A DNA stretch of 64,000 nucleotides from Blasia pusilla (taxonomy: Eukaryota), in NCBI GenBank assembly GCA_050084515.1, contig CM114271.1, forward strand, positions 47,802,001 through 47,866,000, read 5' to 3'. Under the pieces are notes generated by a model that was not told where the DNA came from, did not search any database, and worked only from the letters and a program-made list of their open reading frames with translations. Position numbers and translations under genes: made by a program. The stretch's first letter is position 1, and each line of letters begins with the position of its first letter. Shown one piece after another: positions 1 to 37,275 of the stretch.

Positions 1-2373
1 GCATTTGAGATGCTCAAAGATAGATTGATGTCTATGCCCATATGGAGGAGACCGATCAGGGGGCATCCTTTCTAGCTGCATACGGATTGGAGCATGTTGG
101 GGCTTGGAGCCATGCTCACCCAGCATGACGATGATGGTAGAGAGTTTGTGGTGGCTTATGCTAGTCGCTCGAACAACGCTACAGAGGTGAAGTATAGCTC
201 GTATGAGGATGAGTGCTTGGCTACAGTGTGGGTTGTCGCACATTTCAGATGTTATCTATTCGGAAATCCCTTTACCATCATTACTGATCATCAGCCACTT
301 AAGTGGTTGATGGAGTTGACAAGCAAACAGGGAAGCTTGCGAGGTGGGTTCTTTTGTTGTAGGAGTATGACTTCCAAGGTGGTGCATAGACCTGGGACGC
401 TCAACCAAGATGCAGATGGTTTGATTCGTAACCCATGCCCGAGTCAACGAGATGCGATTGGAGCTTGTTGGCATGGTGAGAGTGATGAGGAGTTGGTGCC
501 AAGATGGTATGCGTGAGCCTATTTCGGTTTGTTGGCTATGGAGAGCCAGATTTCTGAGACTTCGATGGCAAGGTCTGATGGTGAGTCCTTAGATCCAGAG
601 GCCGGTGAGGAGACGACAGGTGGTTGAGACATTCACGACGATGGAGTGGTCTTGGAGTACCTGCATACTGGCAGCGTCGCGAGCACATTGGGTGCTAGAG
701 AGTGGGATCGGATCCTATAGCAAGCCAGACAGTTCCGGTGGGAGGGCACATATGTGTTGCGAGTGTGGGAGGATGGTAGAGTGCGTGTAGTGCCTCATCC
801 TTCACAGAGAGCACATTTGGTGCATCATGCCCACGAGGAGTTGGGTCATTTTGGAGTGAAGCAAACGTACAACTTGCTCCACATTCAGTATTGGTGGCGA
901 GGCATGTAGAGTGACATTCAGCAATTTGTTGCCAGATGCATGGTGTATGATCGAGTCCGAGAATCGTTCAATGCTCTGACTCTATAGTTGCAGCCACTTC
1001 CGATCATGGGTTCACGTTATAGATGGAGTTTGGATTTTACAAGACCTTTGCCTTTGACGGAGCGCCATAGTTGCTATGTGTTGGTGATGGTCGAGCACTT
1101 CTCGAAGTGGATAGAGTTGGTTGCATTGCCTGACAAAGCGAGTGAGGGAGTAGCGTATGCCTTCCTAGATTGAGTGTTGAGTCATTATGGACCACCAATT
1201 GAGGTGTAGACAGACCAGGGTACAGAGTTCCGCGAGGAGTTTTAGGCCTTGTGTGATCAAACAGTGATTGACCACCGCACTACTTCGCGAGATCATCCTA
1301 AGGCGGATGGACTAGCGGAGCGGGTTGTGCACACGATAAAGGAGGACTATGCAAGTATGGCTTGTAGAGAGGTCACTTAGGAGATTGGGACCTTCAGTTG
1401 CCGTGGTTGGCGATGGGATACAGATTGAGAAGGCACGCATCCTTAGCGTCTTTCTCACCGTACTTGTTGCTTTATGGCCAAGACCCAGATTTACCTACGG
1501 CTATTCCTTGAGATGTTGGTGAGGTGTTGAACCTTCATGAGCCTGATGTATGGATGCGAGCATTTTCTCAGAGGGCTGAGTTATTTTGGAGAGTGATGCC
1601 CATGGCGTTTGAGAACTTGGCGATTAAGCAACATTGGGATACGTTGAGGTATGCGACTATTCGAGCCGGTGATTATCGACCTACTATCCGGAGATTTCAT
1701 CAAGGAGACTATGTCTACTAGCAGTAGACGGCACCCATGACATTGGATGTGACTGCAGGGCGCACCATCTTGAGAGTGCGTGAGGTTTTGCCATCCAGTG
1801 TTCTCTTATTGGAGGGACGCGATGGTATGGTTTGGAAGGACCATGTGCGTAACTCTGCGCCACGTCATCTTCCGAACATTAACGGTATAGTTGATCCAAG
1901 CTTAGCAATAGTTCCTGCACGCTTGCGGTGTATGTTGTGCGGTTCCGCCCGTGGTGCACTCACTATGCTAGTCTGTGATGGGTGTTCGAGAGGATGGCAT
2001 ATGGCATGTTTGACGCCACCTCTCACTAGGGTTCCTCAAGGACGATGGATGTGTCTCAAATGTACATAAAGTAGGTGGTTCTACATTTCAACTTGTGTCT
2101 GTGACATGGATGATAAGAAGGCAACTAACGATGGGGCCACATGAGCACCCAAGATTCTTGCTCTTAGCGTTCGAGAGATGTATGTCATAGTAGTTAGGGA
2201 TAGATGGCTATCTGGAGTTAGAGGGACCTAACCATCGGGGGGGCGATGGGAGATATTTTGGTACTTTTTGTCTTGTTGTTTGGACGCCATGAGTTAGCAT
2301 GGGATGGTGCGTGTTTGTGTGTGTGTTTAGTGACAACGATGTATGTTGTGTAGCAATGTGAATGCATACGACA
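1..2373 (+). mobile_element. Ty3/Gypsy family X, copy 1 (3' part): RNase H, integrase, PHD finger, 3' UTR, single terminal repeat B
   Basis: RNase H motifs (LGAMLTQHDDDGREFVVAYASRS, FTIITDHQPLKWLM); integrase zinc-finger (HEELGHFG) and core (WSLDF, VLVMVEHFSKWIELVAL, TDQGTEF); C-terminal C4HC3 PHD; ends in repeat B (2248-2373, ...ATACGACA). Many in-frame stops. Confidence 0.93.
1926..2069 (+). pseudogene. PHD finger at the integrase C-terminus (family X copy 1)
   Basis: CMLCGSARGALTMLVCDGCSRGWHMACLTPPLTRVPQGRWMCLKC has C4HC3 spacing and the typical PPL..VP.G.W.C..C tail. The same domain recurs at ~14436-14577 (+) and ~50575-50718 (-). Confidence 0.93.
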
Positions 2374-3674
2374 CTCTCGATGAAGGTCAAAACATCTATC
2401 CTTGGTGTGACCATAAGTGTGGCAATAGTCACACTGGTAGCGTGGTGGGGCCATCCTCTATGGCTCATGAGCAACCGGAAGCGCTCGTGGTCCTCTCCCA
2501 TGTTGTGTGTAGTCTCTCTGCCTATGGGCCCCTCCACACGTTCAACAAGACAACATCGGTCCCTTCTGGGCAACATATGTAGGTACGGGTCGTTGCCTCA
2601 TAAGCTCACTGTACCCGCCCTGCTCTTTTGGCACACTAGCCCGCTCCCGTGGTACTGGTGCTCGCTGTGGCACGTGTGGGTTCACCGTCACTCGTGGACC
2701 CGTTGACTCTCAAGAAAATCTAGCAATCACTACGTGCTCCTCACTCATGTTGAGCTCAATACGCTCAGACAACTGGAAGACCACCTTCAATGTGGGCTTC
2801 GCTGTGTGAATCAACACCGCATCTCGCACTCTCTTATGTAGTTCTCGGCCCAGAACTCTGTACCAATACTAGACTGAGTGCACCTCAGTCACTCCATACG
2901 TAGCAATGATTAGCCTCCTCATGCGTGTGAATGCCTCTCTCAGACTCTCACCCGATCGTCGCTGAAAATCTTGCAGACTCTTCAGCTTGTCGGTGCGTAC
3001 GCCTTAGTAGCTCTTCCCCAATTGTCAGAAGAACTCCAATGTGGGACTGAAGATGGGTGGCCCTCTACCATCAGAGGTCTCTGCCACATCGCCTGTCTCA
3101 CTACCCTCCTCTCCATCCAGTCTGCGGGCTGATGGTGTGAATCTCTCTCCTCTCACGATCCCATCATATGCCTCACGATCATTAGTGGACACATACCCAC
3201 GAGCCCAATACATCCTCCTAGCATCCATCTCTATTGAATATAGTGATCAAAATTCCATGTAATCATCCATCATAGGACTCTCCAAGTGCTGGAACAACCC
3301 CTTCCATACCATGAAAGGGTTGAATCGTGTCAAGGTCCATATCTCCTAGAAGTCGCACCACGTGTCGAACTCCTGGATAAAATCATCTAAGTCGATGGTG
3401 GCCACTGCATCCAAGAAATGACGCATGCCTTGATGGCCCATGTCGTCCATCTCCTGCCAAGTGATATTGCCTCCGTCTGCAATCTCGTCACCAGACCCGT
3501 TGTCTAGTGATGACGATCCAACCACGGATGGATGTTGAGGTAGCTCCTCACTTGTAATCCCTTAGTATCTTACTTCACTCCGTGTCACACCACTACTTTT
3601 GCACCTAGATAACCTAGTACTAATCCTTCCAAAGAGATCCAACACCCTAATACCCTGCTCTAGGATGCGTGACA
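2374..3674 (-). mobile_element. Degenerate Gypsy gag fragment related to family X, with a short DNMT motif-I remnant at its right end
   Basis: The minus strand gives gag-like KLKSLQDFQRRSGESLREAFTRMRRLI and a Zn knuckle CDYCHTYGHTKDRC next to copy 1 repeat B. 3605-3674 reads RILEQGIRVLDLFGRISTRL. Confidence 0.65.
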
Positions 3675-5085
3675 AGCTACCACTACCTACTAGGCGTATC
3701 TTCTCACTAATTAACAATGGGACCAACTTTTGAAAGGTTGGATATTTCTCTTTTACAAAGATAGAGGTCCCAAAAGACTTATAATCCTTTGAAAGGCCTT
3801 GAAGAATGAACGGAATCAAATCATCATCTTTTATTGTCACTCCAATACTATTCAACAGATCAACAATATGCCTCATACTCAAAACATAGTTATTGATGTC
3901 TTGCAATCTTTTCTTCACTTTGTTCAATTATTGTAAAATTTCAATTGAAGCTTTCTAGCCTTTGTAGATGTTTGGAACAACTTTTCCAATACATTCCAGA
4001 CCTCCTTCAGAATATCAACATCTTGAATGTAACCAATCATTGGAAAACTCATTATTATTGAAATGTAGTGGATTACTTGCCTTGCGCATTTGTTCCAAGC
4101 AAGAACATTCGAGTCTGTTGACTCATCTTCTAGCTTGGCCTCATCACGTGTACCAAGCTCCCATAGTTCTTGACCCATAAGAAATTATTTAATACAAAAC
4201 TTCCAAATATGATAATTTTTCTTTTCTAGCTTCTCGCTTGTGATTGTTGTTGAGGAATACTCCATGAAAAATGATTTTACTCACAAAAATATAATTTCAG
4301 GCTTTCCACTGCTCTAATTGAAACATAGATCATTCTTGAACACAAATTGACCTGAAATTTTCCAAAATTGACCAACTTTATGGAAGAACTAGTTGAAATT
4401 GACTTATAGAGAGCAAACTGCAAAACTTTCCTTCACTAATTCCACTTTTCTACACTAAAATTGCTATTGCAAGAGCTCAGAATGTCATAATAGAGCGATT
4501 TTGGATGCGTTCGAAAGCTTTCAGCGAGTTCTATACAAATTTTGGAATAAGATTTCGGTATTTTCTTAATTTTCGCAGATCCAGATTGCTAAATTAATCG
4601 AGAAAGCCCTAGAAAATGCCTCCAAATTTTTGTCACTATCACCACTCCCTCTAAAATCTTCTACCAATGAGCTCTAATTGAGATCTCCTTCTCCCAACCT
4701 AAAATTGTGCCTTCTCTTGCCTCTCTTCTCTCCTCATATACCAAGAATTTCAATTGATATTATCCTATTGCTTTGATATAATGTAGAAAAAGTGTTAAAG
4801 AAGCATAACTATTGGGATACGACTCTCACACTCACACACCATCATGGAGAACAAAATTTTACAATGAGAAAATGAATCCCCTTCTCAATTTAATAGGGTA
4901 TTTACAAGCAATCCTAAACCTAATCCTAACCATAGTCTTGAGTTAGACTAATTATGATTAATTGTCCCTAGTTAAGATAATCGCGCTTAACTAACTAATC
5001 AAGATTAAGCTTCCCTACTTCATGTGAGTACCAAATATAGCAGTTTGGGTGTCCGATTAGCTTAACTGTAACTCTGTCTTCAATA
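3675..5085 (-). mobile_element. Ty1/Copia remnant: 5' LTR (~4782-5085), degenerate Met PBS, gag (~3675-4265)
   Basis: Copia-type gag (KLEKKNYHIWKF...WELG...EVWNVLEKLFQTSTKARKLQLK...DDDLIPFILQGLSKDY). LTR runs TATTG...TACA and is followed by TTATATCAAAGC, which resembles the TGGTATCAGAGC PBS. Confidence 0.8.
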
Positions 5086-5344
5086 CATGGGAACTAGATG
5101 GATAGGCAAATGTGTGGAGATTACCTATCAATTGGCAGATAAAATCTTATCGGTATGCTATGCCCCCTCCGGCATAGGAGATCTTTGATGCTATTGGGCA
5201 TGCAAAGATCTTCAATTCCTTAGACCTTTGAGCCAAATACTATCAGTTGCCTATCAAATTGGAGGACATGTAGAAGACGGTATTTTGGCGCATCGATCCT
5301 CACGGGAAGGATTGTTTGTACTAGTGCGGTTCTTACCATCTGGG
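5086..5344 (+). pseudogene. Family X reverse transcriptase, N-terminal part (host copy interrupted by copy 2)
   Basis: MCGDY...EIFDAIGHAKIFNSLDL...YQLPI...FLPSG; continues as LKNA at 15528; colinear with the RT at 52700-53345 (-). Confidence 0.85.
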
Positions 5345-5833
5345 TGTCACGACTGTTAGGATAGATCGGTAGGATCTAGCATAGCGTCTACACGAGTAGT
5401 GGAGGACAGGCCCAAGAGGTCAAGGATGACCTATTGAGGCCTCGGGAAACCTGAGAGAGCACGTTTCCCCTTCATTTCGGCTCATTTGGAGCCATATTGA
5501 GAAACTTACTATTTTGGGCAAGTTTCCATATTGGGGATAGTTGAATTTACACTTTGGGAAGTAGCCCTTGACCCGCTACAGCAGATCAAGAGCCAAGGAG
5601 GTGACCTGCAAGCATAGGTTACCATTGAGGGAGTTGGGAGAGGGAAGGGGGTATACCTCGAAGAGTGAGAGCTTGAGAGCTCATTCTCTCTTTGTTGAAC
5701 CTCTTCGCATAAGGCAGCGGAGCTATGGTCTTGCTTGCCTTGTGTGTGTAACCCAAGCTTCTCATTCGGAGAGTGGGTTTAGGGTACACATATGAGAACT
5801 ATAGTGTTGTGAGAGAGATTTGATCTTACTTTA
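5345..5833 (+). repeat. Terminal repeat A1 of family X
   Basis: Direct repeat of 14893-15395, 47127-47640 and 36766-37275 (diverged); reverse complement of 49757-50262. Followed directly by unique leader sequence, not by repeat B. Confidence 0.9.
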
Positions 5834-7100
5834 CAAAGAGAGAATGAGAGAGTAAGAGAGCTTCATGGGGGAGCTCGCTGGTCACTCGTTGTTTTTTCAG
5901 GTTGGGGACCGTGTTCCTTGTTTAGCGGCTCATGGGAGTGCTCACCGAAGCAAGGGCTGCTTTGATTGTTCTTTGCATTTTCCGATTTTTCGTGTGGAAG
6001 AGTGGCGCGCGAAAGCGCTGCCCAATTTGTGATAGGGATTGATTATGGGGGCGGGTTGCTCCATGCTGGCGCTCTCGGGAGCATTATGTAGCTTGCTGAT
6101 TTGTATTTTTAGAGGTTTTACATTTTTTTTGGGAGAAATCAGCGCGGAAGCGCTGCCAAATATTGTGTAGGAGAAAGAGACATTGGGCTTTAGAACAATC
6201 CCTGTCAATTTTTACTGGAATGTCCGATTCATAATTTTTTTGACGCTCTTGTAGATCGTGAAGCATTGCACGTTGTAAAACAAATAGTGCATAATTTTGA
6301 GTTGCGAACAAAAAGTTATGGTTAATCTTGCAAAATTTCCATTGCTAAGCGATTTTTAGGGTCAAACCCTAAACTAGCCGCCACGCCGGTGGCGGCCGTC
6401 GCCGTCATAGTCACCACCAACAATCCTCCATCAAAGATCAATCGTCATCGTCAATGGTCAACTGTCACCGTCACCATCAACGGTCAACCATCACCGTCAA
6501 CGGTCCAACGTCTGTTGTCCACCCTTTGGTTACCATTGCCGCCATTACGGAGTGGAGGGTCTTCCACGACGTTCGTTGATTCTTTGACTTGCGACGCCAC
6601 CAGGTACTTTGTTTCGGCCGCCACCATCATCGCAGTTTGTCATCAACCACTGATGGCAGATGACCTTTGGTTATGGTGTTTGAGTTATGATTTCATGCTG
6701 CTATGTTGTGATTGATAGCCGCTCGGCGACGATCGAGTACCGTGCCATGACGCCCGTAACCGCAACGCCCGTAACCGCAACGCCTCGCCGATTGCTGCGC
6801 CGTGCCGCTTGTGGCCGCACCGCACTGTCTCGATCGCCAAACCGCTCCTTCACTAAGGAGCAGAGCGAGTGAATTGCTGATTGAGGAGGGTATGCCATCG
6901 AGTGCTGCACCCCATTCATGAGTGCTGTTTGTAGCCGTTCTGTGCCGCCAGTGCTGCACCGGACCGCTCGATCTGCACCGCACATCGAGGAGGTTGAGTA
7001 GCGTCAGTACGAGAGGAGTAGGACTTGCTGATTGGAAAAGTTTTCTTCATGATTAAATTGAAGTCAAGATTTGCACTTGCTGAGGAGCGACATCGACATG

Positions 7101-9435
7101 TGTAATGTACAAGTGGTTTTAAAATTGATGTTTATACACTAATTTAATGAGTTCGATCCCCAAGAGGATCACGATTATGAGAAAAGAGAGGTCAAGATGT
7201 CGTTTATCTTGCAATAGTTGTAGTTAAGTGTGTACAATTTGGATTCAATAATTTATCAATGTCTTCAGATCTCTCGTAGTACCAAGATTTCTTTCCTCTA
7301 TTCTCTCTAGTGGAGTTGAAATCACACTCAGGTAGATCTTCATTCAACATCAAAGAACCTCATAGAGATCCCAACAAGAAGCTGGCTTCTCCTACCTTCA
7401 GAACTCAATCCGTCTAGGCAGGCTACTCTCTGTCGAACAAATTTCTTACAACTCCGTGTTGATTATTCTATTGATGAAAAAGTTCTCCTGATTCACTCTT
7501 CACTCTGCAGACCCATGAGAATACTCAGACATATGCATCGCACATCTGAATGAAGAAATGAGTGCTTTACTATTCCATCAAGAATGAGAAATCTTCAGAA
7601 GTATGTACAAACACAAGAGGGTACTACTCTCTTGCTCGGACCATTCCTACAGCATAAGGACTTCATGAGAGAATGATGATGATAGCTACTTTCATGCTTC
7701 TTAAATATTCTCCGAAGTAGGAGTGGTTCTAAGGATTGGAAGCGTTCTTGAGAAATCTGGTGTCTCTTCAACAATTGTAACTACTTAGATCTATGGTGCT
7801 CTTTTCTTTTCCTATGATCCCTGTGAATTTTCTGTGCGTAACTATATTAACTTCCTATCTGATACAAAAAGTTGCGCCTATTCCTAGTCTAACTGTTCTA
7901 TCAATATGCCGCTTGAAATCACTTTGAGTCTTAGCTTCGCTTCGCTGCGAAGTCTAGACCTCTTTTGCTTCACTTGAGGACGAAGCTCTTTCTCTTGATC
8001 TGAAGACGAAGCGCTCCATTCTTTGCTCTGGTTTCAAGTGCTTCGTGCTTCGCTGAGGAGCAAAGTACTTCTTCCTCTTCGTCTTTGTACTTCATTCAAG
8101 AGCGAAGCACTTCATGAACAAGTTTTGAATAGGGCTTCATTGATTTTCCAAGCTTCTCTCGGAGTCTTTAGACTTCATTACTGCATTTCCCTCTCCTCTA
8201 AGGCAAATCCTTGATCTTCCACCTCTCTGCCTTGTCCTAGGAGCTTTGTGATCTCTTTCAATATCACTCATTCTTCTACTACACAAACATAATATCCAAA
8301 ATCATTATGTATACACAAGTTTTCTTTGAATAAAAAGCTCTAAATCTTCAAAAGTACAAAATTGTGGGTATTACATGCCCCCTCCCTCAAATGTGAGCCG
8401 CCCCGGCAAACACTTCATGATGCACCTTCTAAATCCATAAAGGTATCTTCTAAGCTATCAAACTCAGTTGTAGGTGGAAGGTTTGTTGAAAATATTAGGG
8501 GTGTGATTTTGCATCTTCTGTCACCATTTGATAACAACTAACAAAGTTCCTAGCACTTCGTTCTCGACTAATACGTTTGATAGAGTAAACATAGGAAGTT
8601 CTTCAAGATTGATCGTGAGGTTGGATACGACTTCCGGAAGAGACTTTGTATGATTGTTGAACTGGAATTTTCAATGTTTGTTGACATAATCGATCTCCTC
8701 GCTCATCTGTTGTTCGAAGCTCTTTCTTGCTTCCTTGATTAACTCCTTGACATCTTCAAGGTCTAACTGCACTTCGTTGAGCAACTTTTGCTCCGCCTCC
8801 AAGACAGCGATCCTACCTGTGGCTTCTGACCATTGTGCCACTAAGTCCTTGTTAGTTTCTTGTTGTTCTTGAAGTAACTTCAAAGCTTGAGCGTTCTGTG
8901 TCGCTACTTTCTTGAACTCGTGGGTGATAAGATGCACTTGTTGTCGGTATTGTTGAATCAACTACGAAGCTTCCTTGACTTGCAAAGCCAACTGATCAGC
9001 CCCACACTCCATATTGATCGCCAAGCTTTCCCATTGGCGTGCATTCCGCAATTCATACTGAGCCTCGACTAAGTCGCTTTGAACTTTACAAAGCGTCAAT
9101 TTAGTGTCTTTGACTTCTTGATTCCGAAGCTGAAGGTTTGTCTCTACCACTAAGTGTTGTGCTTCGTCTCTGATGAAGCTTGTGCCCTACAATTGATGTC
9201 ATCGAGCGCTTGTAAATACTGGTCCACATTTGCTGTGTCATCAAGGTGTAGTACTTGCTCTAATTGGCTCATTACAGGAACTGCCAGATTCAGAAACCAC
9301 ACCATGTGGTTTGCGGTCTGTGTCATGTGACGAAGAGTAGGGATCTCTTCGCTAGTGCGAGGTGTCTCCTCAGAGTCTTCTTGCGGTGCTGGCTCTGTTT
9401 CATGCCAGGTGTTTCAATTTACATCCTGAGTTACG
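7101..9435 (-). mobile_element. Nested fragment of Gypsy G2: coiled-coil accessory ORF, PPT and complete 3' LTR (7101-8375)
   Basis: LTR bounded by TGTAAT...ATTACA; purine tract GAGGGAGGGGGCA immediately upstream on the minus strand; LTR and ORF are homologous to 22436-24450. Confidence 0.85.
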
Positions 9436-11100
9436 TCCGGACCGAGGGCCAGAGAGGACACCAGAGCGAGTAGCCGATCCGGGTGGGCCTAGAGATCGTG
9501 CACCACGTGGTCTCGTTGGGGGACGAGGAGCTGGAGTTTCCCGACAGGGTGGTGGAGGTGCCCGTAGAGGAGGTAGAGTACCACCATCTAGATGCTCCAA
9601 GGGAGACGCCGAACGTGAGGCTGGGATGGCTGCTCAAACACAACTGCTATAGGAGCAGATTGCTGCTATGGCATTGAGGTTACCCGATGCCGGATCCGTG
9701 GCATCACCATCATATGGAGCATACAGAGATATGGAGGATCCTAGTTGGATGTGCGGGGTTGCCCACATGTAGGACGTTGCAGTTGTGACGCATGGAGTAG
9801 CCACAAAGTTGGATCCACAATGAGGGGAAGCCAGAAAACATACTAGGCTTCCTCAGTCTTTCACGTTGTCCGAAGCGATGAGGACCCCATTGATGGGTCC
9901 TCATCAAAGTTTCTGGAGAGTTTGTGATGTTGTTGATGTGTAGGCACAGAGGGCGATGGGAGAAGCAAGTGCGACGACTCCTATTGTTGATGCTCATGAG
10001 GGGCATATGTTGAGCACGTTGTTGGGGGCGGCCATCATTGTGTCGCACTCCTTTATTTTCTGCGTCGATGTTATGATATTGGGGGGAACGTCTGCCGAGG
10101 CTTTTGGCTCGCCGCTACACTATGTGAGCGCAGAGTTGGAGTTCTTGCATCACGTTCAGAGGTGATTGCAGAGGAGGTGATGGACCTGCCCTTGGAGCAG
10201 ATGCTCGGGCCATCCACGTCAGATTCATGGCAGGCTGCGGCTGCTAGGATGGTGGAGATGCCTGCTAGACCAGCGATAGAGTGTGCCATGGATTCTCCTA
10301 GTGTTGTATTGCTGGATGACCGAGGAGAGGTCTTCCAATTGGGGAGTCCCTGAGGTAGAGCTTTTAGTCCGCAGCGCGTCTTGTTGGATTCACGAGCCCA
10401 ACCCCAAATGTTGGGGAAAGTGTCATTCAGAGGATTGGGCTTGACGAGAGCCGATGTGGAGCGTTGTCCTTTACGGATACAAACATCCTTGGGTGGAGCA
10501 AGTACCACATAGTATATCACCCGACAGGAGGTCGTGGTGAGGATTCGCCCAAGACATCCTACATATGAGTCCGTGGTGTGAGCCAAGGTGATAGTGACTG
10601 ATGCAGAGTCCTACGACGTCTTGGTTGGTGGAGCATTGTTATATCCGATTGGGTTTTCCCTAGATTACTGGGAGGAGTCAGCATCCTAAAGACCAGGATG
10701 GCAGTCAGGTGATGGGTGCCTTAGCTCATTACCCATTCGATTCACAGATGCAGTGATCGAGCGACGGCTAGGAGAGGTGGAGACCTTAGCAGTATTTAGC
10801 AGTGTCATCACTTGGCTTGGTGATTTGATTGAGGAACATGTCCATGTAGAGGATACTTCCGTTCCTGAAATTTCTATGGAGAGGAGTGTTATGGTAGCCG
10901 CATCATTCCGTGGAGGAGAGGTGCTGTTGTGGGGCTCGAATGAGGAGCTTCGATGATTGGTAGATGAGCACGTGCAGACCGCGTGGAGCGAGGCGTTTGC
11001 ACCGGAGCGTGACGGGTCTGAGGAACCCAAGGTAGCAGGGAGTGCTATGATGACACCCTTGGATACCACACCCATTGTGTGGTGTATCCTGGAGGAGGAT

Positions 11101-12050
11101 ATTCGAGTGTTAGATCTCTTTGGAGGGATTAGCACCGGGTTAGCTGTAGTTTTGCAAGGAGGAGTGCAAGTGCAGTAGTACATGTATGTGGAGAGTGATG
11201 ATGTTGCAAGGCGCGTCTCACTACAACATGTGGCGCAGTTACGCCTACGTTTTCCCGACTTATTGTCTACGTTCCGTGGTACAAGGGTACCAGAGTTCCC
11301 TACCGAGGGACATTGTTGTTGTTGGGGGCGCAGGACTTAGAGCACGTAGGGACCATTGATTTGGTAATTGCCAGTTGGCCATGTCAGGGCCAATCGAGTG
11401 CTGGATGAGGCATCAGGTTGGTTGACACTCGGTCTAGGTTGTTTTGGGAGATGTTGAGGGTCTTACGGCAGTTGCAGGAGCACTTGTCTTGTTCTCCAGC
11501 CTACGGTCTGGAGAATGTGCCGATCTTAGGAGACTCCAGGTCATAGGTGGTGATGAGTGCTCATCAGGTACGTGCCTAGATCGGCCTAGCAGTAGTTTTG
11601 GATGCGGCGAGTGTAGGTTCTAGAGCCCATCGCCGCGTCTATGGTGGACCAACTTGGTGCCCCATGCGGTGTTACGTAGGGCGTATGCAAGAGTGGAGCG
11701 CCGCTCCCATTTGTTAGTGGATTCCATTCTGGATCCAGGTCGTCAATCACAAATAGTGAGGCACGATCATCGACCACCGTTGATTGTGGTCAACAGGGTA
11801 GGTAGGCCACGGGTAGCCTTGCCCACGTTTGTGAGTTTTCCCACTTCCTATGCATTTAAGGAGGCCGCTCTTGGCTTGGTTTGGGATGACCAGGTTCAGC
11901 GGTTGGTGGAGCCCAATGTCAACGAGAGAGAGTGAGCGATGGGATTTCCCACATGAGTGACCGCAGTACCGTCAATGTCAGAGGCATGAGGATGCCATGT
12001 ATTGGGTCAAGCAATGGACCTGAACTGCTTGACATGGATCCTCAGCTTGG
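11101..12050 (+). pseudogene. DNMT3-like DNA cytosine-5 methyltransferase domain inside retrotransposon pol (disrupted)
   Basis: Motif I IRVLDLFGGISTGL (11101); II YMYVESD; III RDI; IV IDLVIASWPCQG (PC at 11379-11384); SRLFWEMLRVL; VI LENV (ENV at 11511-11519); VIII LDAASVGSRAHR..LWWTNL (~11600-11656); IX ERE*AMGFP (~11925-11950); X LGQAMDL (12002-12022). Canonical, non-permuted motif order as in DNMT3. Confidence 0.93.
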
Positions 12051-12429
12051 GAGTGGCTGAGCAGCGCCGTATGAGATCGCGACAGATCGCAACAGTTGGG
12101 TTGGTGAGCCCCATGCCTATCGAGATGGTGGAGGCAGTGGCTGGGGGCGAGACCCAAGGAGATCTATACACCAGGGGAGATCGTGAGAGACATCCTTGGA
12201 CTTCTTGGGATGTTTTGCACGTATGCCAGGAAATGAGAGCCACAACATCAAGCGTGGTTTTGGGCACTGCACGTGGAGGAGATCAAATTTTATAGTTGGG
12301 TGTAGGAGAGCGGCCGAGTGTTGTTTTTCAAGACGGGGTTGCACCATAGCAACCACCAATACCCGCACCGAAGAGTCCTACCGTAGTCACAATGGAGACT
12401 TGGGAGCCAGATATGGGCCCTAAGTTGAC

Positions 12430-14580
12430 AAGAGGAGATTCAATTCGATTGCGAAGCCACTAACCTTGCTGACCAAGGTGGATCACGAGTGGCATTGGGG
12501 GGATGAGCAGGAGCGAGCATTTTAGCTGCTCAAGGACAGATTGACGTCCGCGCCTATCTTGAGGAGACCAATCAGGGGTCGTCCTTTCTAGTTGCATACA
12601 AATTGGAGCATGTTGGGGCTTGGAGCGATGCTCACCCAGCATGATGATGAGGGTAGAGAGTTCGTGGTGGCTTAGAATAGCGGCTCGAACAATGCTGCAG
12701 AGGCGAAGTACAGCTCATATGAGGGTGAATGCTTGGCTGCAGTGTGGGCTGTCGTGCATTTTAGGTGTTACTTATTCAAATTCGGCAATCCCTTTATCAT
12801 CATCACTGATCATCAACCACTAAAGTGGTTGATGGAGTCTGATAAGCTTATAGGGAAGCTTGCGAGATGGGCTCTGTTGTTGCAAAAGTATGATTTTCAG
12901 GTGGTACATAGACCTGGAATGCTCAACCAGGATGCAAATAGGCTGAGTCGTAACCCATGCCCAAGTCAGCGAGATATGACTGGAGCTCGATGGCATGGAG
13001 AGAGTGATGAGGAGTCAGTTCCAGGGCGGCACGCGTCAACCTATTTAGGCATGTTGGCTATGGAGAGCCAGAGTGTGGAGACTTTGATGGCGAGTACTTG
13101 GATCCCGAGGCCAGTGAGGAGACAACAGGTGGCCGAGACATTCAAAATGATGGAGTAGTCTTGGAGTACCTTTGTACTGGCAGCGTTGCAAGCATTGTGG
13201 GTACTAGAGAGTGGGATCGGATCCTATAGCGCAGAGGTCTAGACATTTCCTTTGGGAGGGGACACATGATTTGAGGGTTTGGGAGGATGGTAGAGTACAC
13301 GTAGTGCCCCATCCTTTGCAGAGAGCATCACTAGTGTAGCATGCCCATGAGGAGTTGGGTCACTTTGGGGTGAAGCGGACATACACCTTGCTCGAGGTTC
13401 ACTATTGGTGGCGAGGCATGCAGACTAGCGTTCAACAGTTTGTTGCCAGGTGCATGATGTGTGATCAAGTCCGAGCATCGTAAAATGCTCCGACTCCACA
13501 ATTGCATCCATTACTGATCATGGGCTTAGGATATAGATGGAGTTTGGATTTTGCAGGACCTTTTTCTTGGACGGAGCGTCACACTCGTTATGTGTTGGTG
13601 ATGGTCGAGCACTTCTCAAAGTGGATCGAGTTGGTTGCATTGCTTGACAAAGCAAGTAAGGGAGTAGCTTATGCCTTCCTTGACAGAGTGCTGAGTCGTT
13701 ATGGCGCACCAGCTGAGGTGTTGACAGACCAAGGTACCGAGTTTCACGATGAGTTCCACGCCTTGTGTGGTGAGGCGTTGATCGACCACCGCGCGACTTC
13801 ACAAGATCATCCCAAGGCGGATGGATTAGAGTTGTGCAGACGGTGAAGAGGGGTTTATGCAAGTATGGCTTGCAAAGAGGTCACCTAGGAGATTAGGACC
13901 TCCAGTTGCCGTGGTTGGCGATGGGATACAGATTTAGCAGGCAGGCATCCTTAGCATCTTTTTCACCGTACTTGGTACTTTATGGCCGAGAGCAAGATTT
14001 ACCTACGGCCATTCGACGAGATGCTGGTGAGGTGCGGGACCTTGATGACCTAGATGTATGGATGCGAGCATGTTCTCAAAGGGCTGAGTTGTTTCGGAGA
14101 GTGATGCCCATGGCGTTTGAGAACTTGGCGATTGCACAGCATCGGGATACGTTGAGGTATGCGACTATTCGGGGTGGTGATTATCAACCAACTATTTGGA
14201 GGTTTCATCAGGGAGATTATGTCTACTTGCAGTAGACGGCACTGACGACGTTGGATATGACTACAGGGCGCACTATCCTAAGAGTGCGTGATGTTTTGCC
14301 ATCCGGTGTTCTTTTGTTGGAGGGACGCGATGGTATGGTATGGAAGGACCATGTGCGCAATTGTGCACCATGTCACCTTCCTAGCATTGATGGTACGGTA
14401 GATCCGAGCTCAACAATAGTTCCTGCAGACTTGCGGTGTATGTTGTGTGGTTCTGCTCGTGGTGCGGCCACGATGCTAGTCTTTGATGGATGTTCGAGAG
14501 GTTGGCATATGGCATGTCTGACGCCACCTCTCACTAGGGTTCCTCGGGGATGATGGATGTGTCCTAGATGTACATAGAGG
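12430..14580 (+). pseudogene. Family X copy 2: RT thumb/RNase H, integrase, PHD
   Basis: SIAKPLTLLTK, LHTNWSMLGLGAML, WSLDFAGP, LTDQGTEF, PHD CMLCGS...GWHMACLTPPL; colinear with copy 1. Confidence 0.92.
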
Positions 14581-14764
14581 AGATACTAGGTAGGTTTCGA
14601 TTCCAACTTTTTCTGTGACATGGATGGCAGGAAGGCGACTAACAATGGGGCCACATGAGCACCTGGCCTTTCTGCTCTTAGCGTCCTAGAGATGTATGTC
14701 TTGGAAGGTAGGGATAGATGGTTATCTGGAGTTAGAGAGACCTAACCACCAACAAGGGGGCGAT

Positions 14765-15523
14765 TGGAGATATTTTGGTACTTCTCGCCTCTGTTTATGA
14801 ATGCCATGAGTTAGCATGGGATCGTGTGTGTTTGTAAGTGTGTTCGATGACAGCGATGTATGTTGTGTAGCGATGTGTATGCGCACGACAACTGTTACGA
14901 CTGTGAGGATAGATCGGTGGGATCTAGTAGAGCATTTGCACGAGTAGTGGAGGACATGCCCAGAAGGTCGAGGATGACCTGGTGAGGCCCCAGGAAACCT
15001 GAGAGAGCAGGTTCCCCCTTCGTTTCGGCTCATTTGGAGCCATATAGAGAAACTTACTATTTAGGGTGAGTTTTCCATATTGGGGATAGTTGACTTTCCA
15101 CTTTGGGAAGTGGCCCTTGACCCGCTACAGCAGGTCAAGAGCCAAGGAGGTGACCTGCGAGCATAGATTACTGTTGAGAGGGCTTGGGAGAGGGAAGGGG
15201 TATACCTCCAAGAGAGAGAGCTTGAGAAATCATTCTCTCTTTGTTGAACCTCTTCGCATGAGGCGGCGGAGCTATGGTCTTGCTTGCCTTGTGTGTGTAA
15301 CCCAAGCTTCTCATTAGGAGAGTGGGTTTGGTTTGACATTGAGAGACACATGTGAGAACTATATAGTGTTGTGAGAGAGATTTGATCTTACTTTAAGTGG
15401 AGATATTTTGGTACTTCTCGCATCCATGTATGGATGCCATGAGTTAGTATGGGATTGTGTGTGTTTGTGTGTGTGTTTGATGACAACCATGTATGTTGTG
15501 TAGCAATGTGTATGCGCACGATA
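14765..15523 (+). repeat. Split 3' terminus: B1 (14765-14890), AC, A2 (14893-15395), B2 (15398-15523)
   Basis: B = TGGAGATATTTTGGTAC...GCGCACGACA (~125 bp) occurs twice, on either side of a copy of A. Junction reads GCACGACA-AC-TGTTACGAC. Confidence 0.9.
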
Positions 15524-15975
15524 TGGGTTAAAGAACGCTTTGGAAAAATTTTTGACGGTAGTGGATAGGATCTTGGCAGGTCTGGGTTTTTCTAGATGTT
15601 ATATTGATGACATTGTAGTCTTTAGCGCCACGATTAAGGAGCAATAGCGACAACTGGAGGAGGTGTTTCGACGATTGAACTTACATTGGCTGAAGCTACA
15701 TTCGAGAAAGTGCAAGTTCTTCTACGACCAGATTGAGTATTTAGCTCTTACGATATATCCAAGTGGCCTTGGTGTTCAGTAGATGAAGGTAGAGACTATC
15801 TCACACGTTACACGCCCTACAAATATGAGTCAAGTTTGTGCATCCATGGGATTGGCGAATAGGCCGAGATCCTGATTTACGTGCGGCCATTTGTCACGAT
15901 GCTAGTGAGGTGTTGAATCTCAATGATCTTGATGTATGGATGTGAGCATATTCTCAAAAGGTTGAGTTATTTTAA
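15524..15975 (+). pseudogene. Family X host copy continued: RT C-terminal half fused by deletion to an integrase fragment
   Basis: GLKNA...DRILAGLGFSRCYIDDIVVFS (YIDD)...KCKFFYDQIEYL; from ~15861 the sequence matches the integrase region near 1477-1590. Confidence 0.85.
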
Positions 15976-17931
15976 ATATAGTATTCTCCAACCTTCATCT
16001 AACACACATACAGGCAACCCCATAGATATCCCATTCTTTGCTATTGCACATTTTCATGCCTTCCAAGCATCAACCCAAGCATTTCCATCTATCTCTTGAT
16101 TCTCTTCCGTTCTATTGATGATGTTACCTACATTATAGGTCTTTCTTTACAAGTAGTTACTACTTTACCCAATTTTTTGAAGCAACTCTTTGTCCTTATT
16201 TTATTATTTAACGGATACTTACAAAGAAGAAAAGATTTGCAAATTAGACCGCATAGATCTTCGAATTGATTATGAGTATGATTTGAAGGGTGGGGGAGTG
16301 TTTGACAAAAAAGAGGTAAAAGGCACATCTAAAGGTTTTGCGGCCAAAAGACTAGCAAGAATCAAAGAGTTAAGTTATGTGATGAGACATGCAATCAATG
16401 GATTATTCCTTTTGCACTTACACGTGTCTTTTGATACTTTCATGAAAGCATATGCTCACCATTCCCTTGATAATCATCACCTTGGCCTTTCTCATAATTC
16501 TTCTTTATCTGTAGTCACAACTTGTTTTCGACAACACATCTTAGTGACTTTGGCATTGCCATGTCAAACCAAAAAGACCTACATTGACATGTCAAACCAA
16601 AATTGACATCTACCCTATCATTATTATTCTTGTCAAATTTGCCCAAATTTTAGGAATTGTGTATCCCCGTTTATGTCTTCATGATCTTGCCGATTCTTTT
16701 TACATTCCATTTTAGATTTTTAGACTCCTTTATTCTTATGGGGTTATTACATTCCTATGTCCTCTTTGTTTGGATTGTCTAGAGAATCCTTCTAAAAATA
16801 AACACTAGTAGTTCAATATGATATAGGTAGATTTGACGAGACGATGTCCCACGCGTACTCCATTGCCCATGGTGCGCTTTTCTTTTGGCACAATTTCACA
16901 AACTTCTATCCTCCTACTTTGGGACTACGCCATTTTCGAGAAAACTTCATATTTTCTTCGCGTAATACTTTAATGCCTTCAAACCCATGAGAACGTATCT
17001 TCGGATCGTAGAGACCTTCGATGGTATCACTCGCATCATCTTTCAACCCAATTCCTGTTTGCTCACAATAGTGAACTGTTTTTGGGGACAGCGGAATCGC
17101 ATGGCACATAGAATAGAGAGTTCTTCTACGCGACTGTGGCGTCTTCGCGCACCAGCGAATGTACCGACGAGAATCGACTCTAATGATGATAGAATCGAAA
17201 AGTGCACATTTAAACCTGCAATGTCATCATATAGAATAGGTAGTAGAAACTCGGGCGAACCGCCCATTTGGGTTGCCACGTAAGACTCAGATCTGAGTCA
17301 TCTGACGCACTTTGGCTAGAAAACCCTGAGCTATGTACTGAAGAAATGAAGAATGCGTCAAATGACAGTCTGCTGTTTAGGTTCACTGGCACGGCCTACC
17401 GCACCGTGAAAGTGATGGGACAGGCGTAGACCTAACTTTGTCACTTAGAAAGGTGCAAGAGAAAGCTGAATCACTGTCCAAGAAATATATAACAGTATGG
17501 TGAATTTTTTGTCTCGACTGACTTGGCGTGAGAAGTTCTAGCTCGTGGGAATTTGGTGTTGCCAATGTTTGGCACAATGACAATCTCTTCGTGCATTTCA
17601 TTGAAGTGAAATAACTAGGTGTTAGAACAGTCTCCAGGATGGAAATCCTTTACTTCACAGGGTGATGATGCTTGACCATCTGCCGTCCTTTGCGGTCATC
17701 AGGAGTCTACTGGAGTTCCTTCTGGAAGAAACCTTCGACAGTCCGTCTATCACACAGAACGAAGAGGTGAGTAGAAGAGGAGCACTATGCCAAACTTGAG
17801 CATTCGGTTGAGGTGACGTCTTAAAGCCAATAAATTCTCTTGCAGGACTCTTTTCGGCGCCGCCACATGGTTTATTCGAGACCTCTTCAACGGGAGTTAT
17901 CTGCTGCTAGTGAGTAGAGGCGAATCCGTAA

Positions 17932-24452: not shown

Positions 24453-26930
24453 TGTCGCGACCCTCATAACCAAACAACACCAAATAGGCGCCAAGCGAAA
24501 CATCAGAACTCAAAGGAACTCATGCTGCGAGGTTTGCGCTTTGGAGAGGCGTTTGGAAGAGTCTCTTGGAAAAGTCTAAGAGACGAAACGCGGAACAGAG
24601 TTGTGCATTTCATGCGTTAGTGGTCGCGACCAGGAAACCTAGACCAAAATCAAGCCAAGACTTGAGATGAGTTGATTCGTGGGAGGTTGGTTGCCAAAGA
24701 GGTGAGAACCAATTTGGAACACGACTAGCGCTTGGGAGAATCTGACTGTGTTTAGGACCATAACGTTGAGCTCCAAGATGAGTTTGGGACAAATAAGAAG
24801 TGCGTTGGAAAGCTGATCTTGAGACGCTTCCAACGCACTAAAGATCTCAGAAAACGCATAAGTACAAGCTGAGATATTGGCCAAAAACAATTGAGAGAGC
24901 AATCGGGTTGAGGGCCAATTGGAGAGGCCCGGGTGTCTTTCCCTAAATGTAGGGGGCCCCCGGATATCCCCAGAAGTACTAGTAAGGGAGGACCCTCTCC
25001 GAGATGTCTTGGTAAACGAATCCCCACTTTGGGCGCCAAACGGCGTATCAGAGGCACGGGATGGAATGGGAGTTTGGCGCGGAAACCCGAAACCCAAACC
25101 TGATCCAAGGGAGTGGACTTTGTACGCCACACTTGGATCCCAACCCGAGATTCACTTCGTGCAAGTCTTGGTGAGGAACTCATTGGATGTCCATCGGAAA
25201 ATTGGAACCGCTAAGCGCGAAACGATGTTTCAGGTTCCTGAACCGACCAGAAAGTCTGTCCCAAGTTTTTCGAGATTTGCCTATGTTGGAAACCGCGAAA
25301 CTAGGAAGGTTGAGCTTGATGAGAGTCCGAGACGAGAACTCGGAAAGTGATCCCGCTGATTGATCCAAGACCCGACTAACCGAAGTGCATGTTTGGATGC
25401 AGATCAGCGTTGAGAGCGTGACCTACTGAACGCACGCTTCCGCAACAAACAAGATTAACGTTCAAGGATAGTAGGCGCACGACACGTGGTATCAAAGCTT
25501 GTCCTTGATGAGCGTGAACTTGGGGTCGTTGAAGATCTGGACGTTTGGGGAGAACTCAAGGTAGCCAGAAGACTGCAACGCCGAGGAGGAATGCAAGAGG
25601 CGAGGAGGAGATCTGAGAAAGCGAAGACTCGCAAATGGCGACCAAAGGCGAAGAAGCGAGGAAACCGCGAGTCAAAGCAAAGAAGCCGAGAGACGAATCA
25701 ATGACGGATCGAGAGCCAGAGGTGGAATTTGCAACTCCCGAAGTGCCGAGTCCCAGACATGAGGATGTTCCAACCAAAAATCTTTCCGCAGGACCTTCGG
25801 GTTCAAACTTAAACGATCCGGCCTTTTATATCCAAATGATGGGATTGATGAAGGTGATGGCGGACCAGATGACCGAACAGAGCAAGGTGATATCGGAATT
25901 CAAGTCAAATGGAGCCTCTAGTTCTGGCAAGAAGCTTTGTAAGACTAATTTGCCAACGCCATTCACAGGAATGGGGCGTTCTCAGAAAGTGAGCGAGTTT
26001 CTAACGGAACTCGAACTTTATTTCGAAGCGCAAAAGGCAGATGAATAAGACAAAGTGACTGTAGCGGTCACGTTTCTGAAGGATCACGCTCTCCATTGGT
26101 GGACGGCTCACCGTAAAGAACATGTAGGTCGCGGGAAAAGGTTGAGTTGGGAAGATTTCAAGGAGTTGATTGGGAACCGATTCACTCCGGAATATCAGGA
26201 GTATCGCGATGGCATGGAGGTGGTGAGGTTGTGCCAGAGTGGATCACTTGGTGCTTATGTGCGAGAGTTTAGTGCACTCATGAGTGCACTTTCCACGGAT
26301 GAACATACAAAAAAGGTGATCTTCCTAAGTGGGCTCAAATCGAGTGCCGAAAAGGCCCTCTTTCGTATGCCTCACATCCAATACTTCCAAGAGGGTTTGG
26401 AATGGGGGTGAGCGCGACCACGTAGGGTCTCTTGCCCAAGCAGCGAAACGAGTGGAACTCAACGCGAAGCCAAAGGGGCCGCCGTTTACGAAGTCAACGA
26501 ATGCCAAAGTGATTTGCTACAATTGTGGCGAACCCGGACATATGGCTAAGGAATGTGTTAGGCCCAAGGTTAGTAAACCGAGTATGATTGCGTTTGCCGC
26601 TAAGCATTTATCGGAGGGAGATCTAGATACATCTCTACAAGTCACCAAGAGAACGCCCAATTTGGTTTACCTAGGATCCAGGATCGCTAATCGCGATGTG
26701 ATGTTGCTTGTTGATACAGGTGCTTCGCACTCATTCTTGAGTCCGAGAATCGTAAAAACGTTGGGATTACCAACCACCAAGGCGGATGAACCCATTAGGG
26801 TAGGATTCGGGGGAGGTAAGTCCCACCAGACTTCAGATCTGGTTTTAGGGCTAGTTGTGAGATGGAGTATTTGAGTTGAAGGAGAATTTTACAGTTTGCG
26901 ACATGGACGGTATCGACGGAGTCTTGGGGA
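24453..26930 (+). mobile_element. Gypsy G3, 5' part, nested in G2: LTR 24453-25484, Met PBS 25487-25498, gag, Zn knuckle, protease
   Basis: LTR TGTCGCGAC...GCGCACGACA; PBS TGGTATCAAAGC; gag FLKDHALHWW...WEDFKELIGNRF; CYNCGEPGHMAKEC; LLVDTGASHSF. Confidence 0.92.
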
Positions 26931-32900: not shown

Positions 32901-33921
32901 ATCCCGACCATGCTCAGGGGGGTGCTATTTCTGTTGGACTACTTAGTATTGCAGCCCCTAACAACCATTGGCTATCCTTTGCTCATTGGAAGACCCTGGC
33001 TGTATGGTGCGAGAGTGGCTACGGATTGGAAAAGGAGACGTTTCACGATCCAGGCTCCGGACCAGGTCTCCAAGCGTCTCATCAAGCTGTCGTGGAAATC
33101 ACGACCATCCCAAGGAGAAACGCCACCGACCTACGAAGGCTATACGTCAGATCAAGAGCAAACTACAGCTACTGAGTCCTCATCCAATGTGTATTATTTA
33201 GAATGTTACGAAATAGACGAGGAGTCGATACCTAGCAAACAGATGTCGACCCGAGAAGAAGAGAAGATGGGTCATAGCACATTCTAGTTTACAGAAAGTA
33301 TGGTTCAAGAAAAGGACTACATATAGGTCTTAATTACAAGTCAGAAGTCTCTACGCCTCTCGGAGGATTTGTCTCCCACCGAACTCATGAAGTATAAAAG
33401 ATTATTGTTTGAGTATTTGGATGTGTTTGCATACTCCATGGATGAAATGACAGGCATTCTAGCACAGTATGGTGAATACCGAATTGACCTAAAAGAAGGT
33501 GCGGTCCGGTACAAATGAGGCAGTATCGCCTGAACTCGAAGTACTCGTTGTTAGTCAAGGACGAGATCGACCAGCGTCTTGGGGCAAGAATAATTTATCT
33601 GGTATTAAGTAGCAAGTGGGTGTCTCCCATTGTGATTGTACCCAAAAAACAAACCGGAAAAATTAGAGTGTGCCAGGATTATCGGAAATTGAATGCGGCC
33701 ACCTTAAAGGACCATCATCCCCTACCTTTCACTGATAATATTTTGGGTAAAGTTGCCGGCCACGAGCGTTATACTTTTTTGGATGGATACTCGGGTTATA
33801 AGCACGTATCCATACGAGAAAAAGATCGCCCCCTCACCATCCCCATCCCAATCTCAAGCATCGTCCAACCAGGGCGAGGGGTCTATGGTCGCACGGCTAC
33901 AACACGCACTACATAATGAGT

Positions 33922-36765: not shown

Positions 36766-37275
36766 TGTCACTTCTCTTAGGATAGATAAACAAGATCTAG
36801 TAGAGCACCTTTGTAGATACTAGAGGAGAGTCTCAAGAGGTCGAGGATGACCTGTTGAGACCATGGGTAACCTAAGGGAGCAGGTTTTCCCATTATTTTA
36901 GCTTATTTAGAGCCATACATAGAAACTTACTATTTAGGGCAAGTTTCCATATTGAGTATAGTTGAATTCCTAATTTGGGAAGTGGCCCTTGACTCGCTAT
37001 AGTAGGTCAAGAGCCAAGGAGATGACTTGCGAGCATAGGTTACCATGGATAAAGCTTGGGAGAGGGAAGGGGGTATATATATCTCCAAAAGAGAGAGAGA
37101 GCTTGAGAGCTCATTCTCTTTTTGTTGAATCTCTTGGCATGAGGCGGCGGACCTATGGTCCTCATTGCCTTGTGTGTAACCCAAGCCTCTCATTAGGAGA
37201 GTGGGTTTGGTTTGACATGAGAGAGAGAGAGAGAGAGTTGTGCATCTTTGTGAGAGCTTGTGATGGAGAGATCCA
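36766..37275 (+). repeat. Diverged repeat A of family X (possibly A1 of the copy at 42750-48745)
   Basis: Begins TGTCAC...TTAGGATAGAT and is colinear with 5345-5833; no repeat B follows. Confidence 0.8.

Follow-up and report, generated by a model that had tools for sequence, protein, structure and literature searches.

A PHD finger on the integrase and a DNMT3-like methyltransferase in decayed Ty3/Gypsy elements of Blasia pusilla

We analyzed a 64-kb stretch of the Blasia pusilla genome (contig CM114271.1 of assembly GCA_050084515.1, positions 47,802,001 to 47,866,000; hereafter "the window", in which positions are counted from its first nucleotide). The window contains a mosaic of at least seven fragments of a single Ty3/Gypsy retrotransposon family, and three of the copies, designated A, B, and C, end their pol region in a PHD finger. 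This finger is a conserved C-terminal module of the integrase (IN), and the family to which the copies belong combines it with a DNA methyltransferase (DNMT) of the DNMT3 type. Histone reading, target choice, and a coupling between the reader and the writer are putative functions.

The PHD finger at the integrase C-terminus

The entire window was scanned in six frames with a regular expression for the strict Cys4-His-Cys3 (C4HC3) pattern, and diverged copies were sought by tblastn with P0001, a 113-residue open frame of copy A (1728-2069, plus strand) that ends in this pattern. The broken copies were searched against Pfam with stop codons read as X, the cut-off for the PHD family (PF00628) being 24 bits. 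The strict pattern was found once, in copy A, and tblastn recovered the corresponding fingers of copies B and C (Table 1). A search for exact or near-exact DNA matches yielded no PHD copy beyond that of copy A; it missed copies B and C, since divergence among the copies amounts to 15-18%. In all three copies, the finger is located 3' of the Integrase_H2C2 and rve matches and follows the C-terminal module of the integrase directly. The C4HC3 pattern, the scores over the cut-off, and the predicted PHD fold place the three in PF00628, copies B and C each with one ligand fewer. A preliminary description of this DNA had proposed that three copies end pol with a C4HC3 PHD finger. The three fingers were indeed there, with coordinates right within a few bases, although the third lies on the minus strand, which had gone unstated, and the full set of ligands is retained in copy A alone. 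We also considered the conserved C-A-P-C-H motif that precedes the finger as an extra zinc knuckle and rejected it, as no more than 33 of 49 sequences have the first Cys; by its appearance, the motif is the last part of the C-terminal module of the integrase.

The strict C4HC3 pattern is kept in 28 of the 43 relatives of P0001, and the other 15 are truncated or mutated. In an alignment of 74 fingers, the ligand columns were fixed by the way in which the sequences had been picked, and only the positions outside the search pattern are informative. One Trp outside the pattern is kept in all 74 fingers, and several positions of the fold in 62-71 of them, indicating that the PHD finger has been under selection.

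Among the proteins of solved structure, the best sequence matches of the finger were PHF12, CHD4, KAT6A/B, DPF2/3, KDM5A/B/D, AIRE, PHF21A, BAZ2A/B, ATXR5, ORC1b, and UHRF1. The AlphaFold model of P0001, built from 29 sequences, has a predicted local distance difference test score of 74-88 over the finger and 64 overall, and is thus confident over the finger only. Foldseek aligned this model with the second PHD finger of DPF3 at a root mean square deviation of 0.6 Å over 47 columns, and further neighbors were BAZ2A/B, ATXR5, MOZ/MORF, UHRF1, the first PHD finger of KDM5B, ORC1b, and BHC80. The entry titles of most of the listed neighbors contain "unmodified H3". By sequence and predicted fold, the putative reader groups with fingers whose structures were determined with the unmodified N-terminus of histone H3 bound. 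Judging by protein names, the ING, BPTF, TAF3, and PYGO types are represented neither in the top 60 sequence matches nor in the fold matches listed, and we take none of the listed matches to be a reader of histone H3 trimethylated at lysine 4 (H3K4me3) through an aromatic cage.

The methyltransferase and its pairing with the finger

Among the three PHD-bearing copies in the window, a DNA_methylase match (PF00145, E = 8.8e-7) was obtained in copy B only. The copy B domain comprises motifs I, IV (PC, Pro-Cys), VI (ENV, Glu-Asn-Val), VIII, IX, and X in the usual order without rearrangement, and is broken by two frameshifts and several stops. We used an intact relative, P0046, to classify this domain. 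Its best matches among solved structures were DNMT3A (E = 6e-12), DNMT3B (1.4e-9), and DNMT3C (6e-9), followed by weaker matches to tobacco DRM (1.2e-8), DRM2 (1.6e-4), and bacterial enzymes (1e-3 or weaker); DNMT1 was absent from the matches at E ≤ 0.01. DRM is matched only through its permuted C-terminal half, and the domain is therefore of the DNMT3 type, not of the DRM type. In a profile search of long proteins, the only cellular enzyme found was an ant DNMT3 (P0265, E = 4e-17). The label "DNMT3-like" that the domain had been given earlier is thus supported by DNMT3A as the best solved match and by the unrearranged motifs. All 114 full-length domains keep both the catalytic Cys and the Glu of ENV; the two Arg residues of motif VIII are kept in 114 and 113, and the Gly of motif I in 113. 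Motif IV reads Pro-Cys in 46 of the 114 and Glu-Cys in 59 (P0050-P0199), the other catalytic positions being kept. With its catalytic residues retained throughout, the DNMT has been under selection.

A scan of a protein library clustered at 50% identity with P0046 gave 4268 proteins at E ≤ 1e-3, of which 269 had E ≤ 1e-30, and we analyzed the best 150 representatives. Local phmmer mapping assigned 20 of them to an architecture with the DNMT after the protease (PR) and, in part, before the reverse transcriptase (RT), PR-DNMT(-RT), and 75 to one with the DNMT between RNase H (RH) and the integrase, RT-RH-DNMT-IN; the remaining 55 were too short. Within the 150, the C-terminal region of the integrase was complete and followed by 60 or more residues in 43 representatives, and 42 of these possess a PHD finger there. 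The profile search of long proteins returned 48 matches over the threshold, and 17 of the 20 that bear rve also carry PF00628. In a scan of metagenome contigs with P0046, 160 stretches were confirmed and 80 loci retained. When at least 3700 nt were available downstream of the DNMT (31 loci), the finger was reached in 20, with all ligands kept in 12 of the 20. The 11 misses comprise six loci of a rearranged subgroup, in which the IN-PHD half is inverted on the other side, three that end at or just before the finger, and two that are disrupted. The preliminary description had paired the finger with a DNMT3-like writer in one element family and had named co-occurrence across related families as a check. 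The pairing is borne out by copy B and the 80 related loci, and the co-occurrence by all three counts (42/43, 17/20, and 20/31 loci).

An internal rearrangement is shared by a subgroup on eight contigs (L055, L057, L058, L067, L068, L070, L071, and L072), whose DNMT domains are 42-48% identical to P0046. An inverted DNMT-RT segment lies in each between the PR-DNMT part and the RT-RH-IN-PHD part, and the presence of the same rearrangement on eight contigs suggests a structural variant that has propagated.

The named relatives of the window type are from Marchantia polymorpha, Calypogeia fissa, and Sphagnum fallax; by the 64-78% protein identity of the decayed copies, the host would most likely be a liverwort of the Marchantia kind. 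Named proteins of the RH-DNMT-IN-PHD type are from Scenedesmus sp. and Cymbomonas tetramitiformis, and a match from Haematococcus lacustris contains RT, RNase H, and PHD only. No Klebsormidium protein was among the named matches of the relative searches. In a FastTree phylogeny of 131 element DNMT domains and one cellular DNMT3, all of the RH-DNMT-IN rows formed a single clade (102 rows, support 97), and the PR-DNMT rows fell outside of it in two weakly supported groups. The root and the order of events are left unsettled by the single, long-branched cellular outgroup. The members of the RH-DNMT-IN-PHD clade (P0079, P0102, P0109, and others) have a tail of 100-500 residues after the finger; four proteins were scanned against Pfam, and no match was found in the tail of the three that bear PHD.

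In the 80 loci, tblastn placed gag/PR-DNMT first and RT-RH-IN-PHD after it. The RT starts 380-470 nt past the end of the DNMT in 45 of the 80, and the two are in the same frame in 34 of these 45, mostly 141 codons apart. All of the 34 same-frame loci have a stop at one fixed position in the spacer. Altogether, we identified 52 true sites of this conserved in-frame stop, 51 in the loci (L001-L077) and one in copy B of the window; 36 are TAG and 16 are TAA, followed by CAA CCC in the loci and by CAA CCA in the window. Two further matches to the stop pattern were spurious. Gene models of Marchantia, ~1150-1330 amino acids in length, end near the stop, three (P0233, P0237, and P0253) at the homologous position and one (P0242) a few residues earlier; those of a second family end at a fixed point of their own. 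P0035 and P0036 start just past the conserved stop. This conservation, together with the sequence context, suggests that gag-PR-DNMT and RT-RH-IN-PHD are two frames joined by a leaky stop, and most likely the conserved UAG would be read through at low frequency; the context presumably resembles the read-through signal of the tobamovirus type. As the DNMT lies in the gag-PR-DNMT frame, it would be made at Gag levels. The other stops in the 80 loci are scattered and no frame reaches 600 codons, from which we regard the loci as decayed copies.

Copies of the family in the window

The fragments were mapped by comparison of the window with itself and by tblastn with intact relatives, namely P0035 (RT-RH-IN-PHD, 1039 aa) and P0047 or P0233 (gag-PR-DNMT), and are summarized in Table 1. 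The family has the order of pol domains, the terminal repeats with a target-site duplication, and the gag CCHC knuckle and protease upstream of pol that are proper to Ty3/Gypsy elements. In the Pfam search, RVT_1, RT_RNaseH, Integrase_H2C2, and rve appeared in this order in copy C, as well as in P0035, P0057, P0064, and P0102. Pfam detected zf-CCHC and Asp_protease_2 in the relative P0064, and the gag and protease of copies B and F in the window were found by tblastn only. Every frame of the family in the window is broken by stops and frameshifts, the longest surviving frame anywhere being at most 497 codons, and all of the copies are dead.

Table 1. Features of the retrotransposon family in the 64-kb window.
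Feature	Positions	Strand	Evidence
Copy A (cut off by the window boundary): RNase H, integrase, PHD, 3' untranslated part, B repeat	1-2373	+	blastn, 82% to copy B 12517-14890; Pfam RT_RNaseH, Integrase_H2C2, rve, PHD; tblastn, P0035 aa 353-1037
Copy A PHD finger: 8/8 zinc ligands kept; stop codon at 2067-2069, three codons past the last Cys	1929-2063	+	Regular expression; PF00628, 36.2 bits, E 6.4e-9
Copy A B repeat	2249-2371		Repeat comparison
Gag fragment of the same family, inverted, adjoining the end of copy A	2374-3450	-	tblastn, P0233 aa 1-353, 44% identity, E 2e-78
E1 (further copy), first half of RT, split by insertion of copy B	5041-5321	+	tblastn, P0035 aa 107-199
Copy B, ~10.2 kb, whole element nested in E1 RT; TGGG at both flanks	5345-15521	+	Self-comparison, tblastn, repeat analysis
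Copy B 5' repeat, A part only	5345-5817	+	Repeat comparison
Copy B remaining gag and aspartic protease	9407-11280	+	tblastn, P0233 aa 346-942, P0047 aa 19-564
Copy B DNMT3-type C5 methyltransferase (~)	11070-12080	+	Pfam, frame reading, tblastn
Copy B family-conserved in-frame stop, TAG then CAA CCA, between DNMT and RT frames	12347-12349	+	Pattern search
Copy B end of RT thumb, RNase H, integrase, PHD	12433-14571	+	Pfam, tblastn
Copy B PHD finger: third ligand Cys>Phe, one stop	14437-14571	+	tblastn, P0001 at 14236-14574, 82% identity; PF00628, 31.8 bits, E 1.5e-7
Copy B B repeat before the 3' repeat	14765-14888		89.5% to 15398-15521
Copy B 3' repeat: A part 14893-15379, B part to 15521	14893-15521	+	
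Copy B B repeat at the end of the 3' repeat	15398-15521		
E1, second half of RT	15522-15860	+	tblastn, P0035 aa 206-318
A repeat, isolated fragment	36766-37227	+	Self-comparison, repeat analysis
Fragment F: gag, protease, start of DNMT, then truncated	45273-48796	+	tblastn
Solo repeat (A+B), inserted in fragment F	47127-47764	+	Self-comparison, repeat analysis
Solo repeat, B repeat at its end	47642-47764		
Copy C: RT (P0035 aa 120 onward), RNase H, integrase, PHD, B repeat (50392-50267), A+B repeat (50262-49631)	49631-53371	-	Self-comparison, Pfam, tblastn
Copy C PHD finger: seventh ligand Cys>Tyr, one stop	50579-50718	-	tblastn, P0001 at 50854-50579, 82%; PF00628, 29.7 bits, E 6.5e-7
Copy C B repeat at the end of the 3' repeat	49756-49631		

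Copy B is an old insertion, as identity between the A parts of the two repeats that bound it is 87.7%. It lacks the fingers and palm of RT (approximately aa 35-320 of P0035), the residue corresponding to ~aa 34 being joined directly to ~aa 322. This deletion (12350-12440), with PR, DNMT, RNase H, IN, and PHD kept, may mark a non-autonomous deletion derivative. Of the DNMT region, fragment F retains approximately the first 85 residues and no more, and neither Pfam nor tblastn detected a DNMT upstream of the RT in copy C. Copy A has no 3' A+B repeat, and the inverted gag fragment stands directly at its end.

The repeats follow an atypical layout, A-internal-B-A-B, in which a B segment of 124 bp occurs twice, immediately ahead of the 3' repeat and at that repeat's end. 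The repeats start with TGTCACG and end with CACGACA (CACGATA in copy B).

Most stretches of the family show a strong GC skew, approximately +0.22 to +0.25 on the plus-strand copies (1-2000, 10001-16000, and 42001-48000) and approximately -0.20 to -0.22 on the minus-strand copies (48001-54000 and 56001-60000); a few stretches, such as 2001-4000, lack such a strong skew. The remaining large frames of the window are pieces of other retroelements or lack a Pfam match. They include a second Gypsy element with RNase H and Integrase_H2C2 at 27423-29681 (minus strand), in the last frame of which no reader domain was detected, a pair of gag-PR-like repeats that are 70-75% alike (24453-26931 on the plus strand and 55582-59143 on the minus strand), a frame of 490 aa with a CCHC knuckle (31815-33287, plus strand), and a frame of 497 aa without a Pfam match (61359-62852, minus strand).

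Relation to known systems and possible functions

DNMT3 in the Gypsy elements of streptophytes was described by de Mendoza et al. (2018; PMC5890265), and the legend of their Figure 4c gives for KnitGypsy-Dnmt3 of Klebsormidium nitens an A-internal-B-A-B layout, namely DIRS-like repeats with Gypsy domains. These elements were taken up again in PMC12344493 and in a preprint (10.64898/2026.05.21.726589), the latter with the name "streptophyte Gypsy-DNMT3". The family studied here is alike in having an unrearranged DNMT3-type domain within the Gypsy coding region, its catalytic residues (the frame of copy B being broken), the A-coding-B-A-B layout, and a streptophyte host. The likeness is one of layout and domains, and the hosts differ, Klebsormidium on the one hand and a liverwort type, with Marchantia as the nearest named relative, on the other. 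The term "PHD" does not occur in the text and legends of PMC5890265, and the finger may be drawn in its Figure 4c or in its supplements. Likewise, our search of the texts of the literature found no paper that links PHD with Gypsy-DNMT3, and figures or supplements may show such a link.

PHD fingers in retrotransposons have been treated in general terms (PMC6673714), and fusions of transposable elements with reader domains have been surveyed (10.1101/2021.11.30.470311). The PHD fingers of CR1-like elements and Chlamydomonas REM1 similarly represent the capture of a reader by a retroelement with a proposed role in chromatin targeting, but they are not reported together with a DNMT.

Chromoviruses carry a targeting chromodomain at the integrase C-terminus. 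The element studied here resembles them in that a module of the histone-tail reader class is fused to the same end of the integrase, directly after its last conserved module, and differs in that the module is a PHD finger. No Chromo match (PF00385) was found in the three window copies, the 43 relatives, the 48 matches of the long-protein search, or four long relatives, and thus no chromodomain stands C-terminal to the integrase in any of them. In the cluster listing of the nearest PHD-less relatives, with three families shown per cluster, Chromo appeared in 1 of 10 rows. The finger had been described as standing "in place of a chromodomain", which is right for its position after the integrase but goes no further than position.

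The ADD domain, shared by cellular DNMT3, ATRX, and DNMT3L, is likewise a zinc-finger reader of the H3 tail that is associated with a DNMT3-type catalytic domain, and both it and the finger of the element can be classed as readers of K4-unmethylated H3, the latter only by similarity. On the other hand, the element has one canonical finger of the C4HC3 type and lacks a GATA-like part, the finger being located on the integrase instead of the DNMT. No ADD family match was found in the three window copies or four long relatives, and ADD_DNMT3 (PF17980) and PWWP in the long-protein search were found on the ant DNMT3 alone and in none of the 47 element proteins. The echo of ADD-DNMT3 drawn earlier thus holds insofar as a PHD finger of the histone-reader class and a DNMT occur in one family, the finger being a plain PHD and not an ADD. 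The further claim of one polyprotein combining the reader and the writer needs revision for bryophytes, in which the DNMT belongs to the upstream gag-PR-DNMT frame and would share at most a read-through precursor with the finger. As a statement of how the element may work, the analogy is reasonable. It is weakest in the bryophyte clade, because the modules are at opposite ends of such a precursor, and stronger in proteins in which the DNMT, IN, and PHD are adjacent.

We propose, with moderate confidence, that the window copies are the dead and nested remains of a bryophyte Ty3/Gypsy element of the published Gypsy-DNMT3 kind, in which the integrase-PHD would tether integration to a state of the H3 tail and the DNMT would methylate the element itself. 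The intact family would encode gag, protease, and a DNMT3-like methyltransferase, followed by an in-frame UAG and then RT, RNase H, integrase, and PHD. After cleavage by the protease, the integrase-PHD would tether the integration complex to nucleosomes with a particular state of the H3 tail, probably H3 unmethylated at K4, that is, non-promoter chromatin, which would bias the landing sites of new copies. The DNMT, made along with Gag, would methylate the cDNA of the element or its new copy; that a retrotransposon DNMT methylates its own element has been proposed by de Mendoza et al. (PMC5890265). The reader and the writer would act in the same life cycle and could do so as separate mature proteins. 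In the wider clade of the RT-RH-DNMT-IN-PHD order, to which the named green algae belong, the two are neighbors and may form a single protein.

Several observations weigh against this proposal. At 8-9 residues after the first Cys, an acidic pair is present in most wider-clade fingers but absent from the bryophyte ones, those of the window included. In the solved readers, this pair is important for reading unmethylated K4, and the specificity of the bryophyte fingers may therefore differ. The evidence for read-through consists of the conservation and the context of the stop, and all seven of the best-covered loci checked are, like every window copy, broken by stops. The single representative without PHD among the 43 is P0108. 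Furthermore, no finger was found in P0203 and P0208, which are full-length polyproteins of 2327 aa and 2138 aa, and no PF00628 match in P0257. All of these fall in a PR-DNMT subclade that is the sister group of the bryophyte one, and P0064 and P0074, the representatives of the clusters of P0203 and P0208, keep the catalytic residues, so that the pairing of DNMT with PHD is not obligatory. All of the co-occurrence counts start from DNMT-bearing sequences and say nothing on elements with a PHD-integrase and no DNMT, and the high co-occurrence could be plain common descent. Finally, we discarded a reading of insertion preference from the window: of the approximately four insertions, two are within copies of this very family, which is uninformative because the family occupies ~30% of the window.

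The same observations leave room for the PHD finger and the DNMT as independent passengers, each captured once, early in a green-lineage Gypsy clade, and inherited together without coupling. We judge this possible, though not probable. The DNMT changed its position (PR-DNMT-RT versus RH-DNMT-IN) and PHD stayed on the integrase, the sister subclade does with a DNMT that keeps its catalytic residues and no finger, and the two modules are in different frames of expression in the bryophyte clade, all of which favors this reading. Nevertheless, both modules were retained in 42/43 and 17/20 cases, across clusters of less than 50% identity and with conserved functional residues, although this demonstrates the keeping of each module and not their coupling. 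Alternatively, the finger may not select target sites but bind a host factor, serve in nuclear import or particle assembly, or gate the DNMT as ADD does in DNMT3A. The bryophyte fingers without the acidic patch of the wider clade would suit such a role, as would the fact that PHF12, the best sequence match, is found in a co-repressor complex. We nevertheless find this unlikely, since the integrase C-terminus is the position of the targeting domain in chromoviruses and the nearest solved neighbors of the finger are binders of the H3 tail.

It is very improbable, in our view, that the finger reads the active mark H3K4me3 and steers insertion to promoters. The class of PHD fingers does include H3K4me3 readers. 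In addition, a retrotransposon PHD of cnidarians has been related to PYGO (10.1101/2021.11.30.470311). Against this stand the best matches, with no ING, BPTF, TAF3, or PYGO type among them by name, the titles of the neighbors, which mostly name unmodified H3, and the location of all copies seen in repeat-rich DNA.

The targeting and self-methylation proposed above could extend from the bryophyte elements to an old Gypsy clade of the green lineage (the 269 clusters at E ≤ 1e-30, with named chlorophytes and bryophytes) that carries a cooperating PHD reader and DNMT3-type writer, lands in chromatin unmethylated at H3K4, and methylates itself. We regard this extension as speculative and rather doubtful. 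The DNMTs of retrotransposons have been published; what is new here is the near-constant PHD partner on the integrase, the two positions of the DNMT, and the conserved stop that places the DNMT in one frame with Gag and protease. Genomes of the Marchantia type, for which good chromatin maps exist, contain the family in abundance, and the short domain and many insertions provide experimental handles. If true, the extended proposal would make the clade a transposon-borne counterpart of the ADD-guided DNMT3, kept for hundreds of millions of years while the DNMT moved within pol. A genuine coupling would constitute a second arrangement of a reader plus a DNMT3, independent of the first and serving the parasite and not the host.

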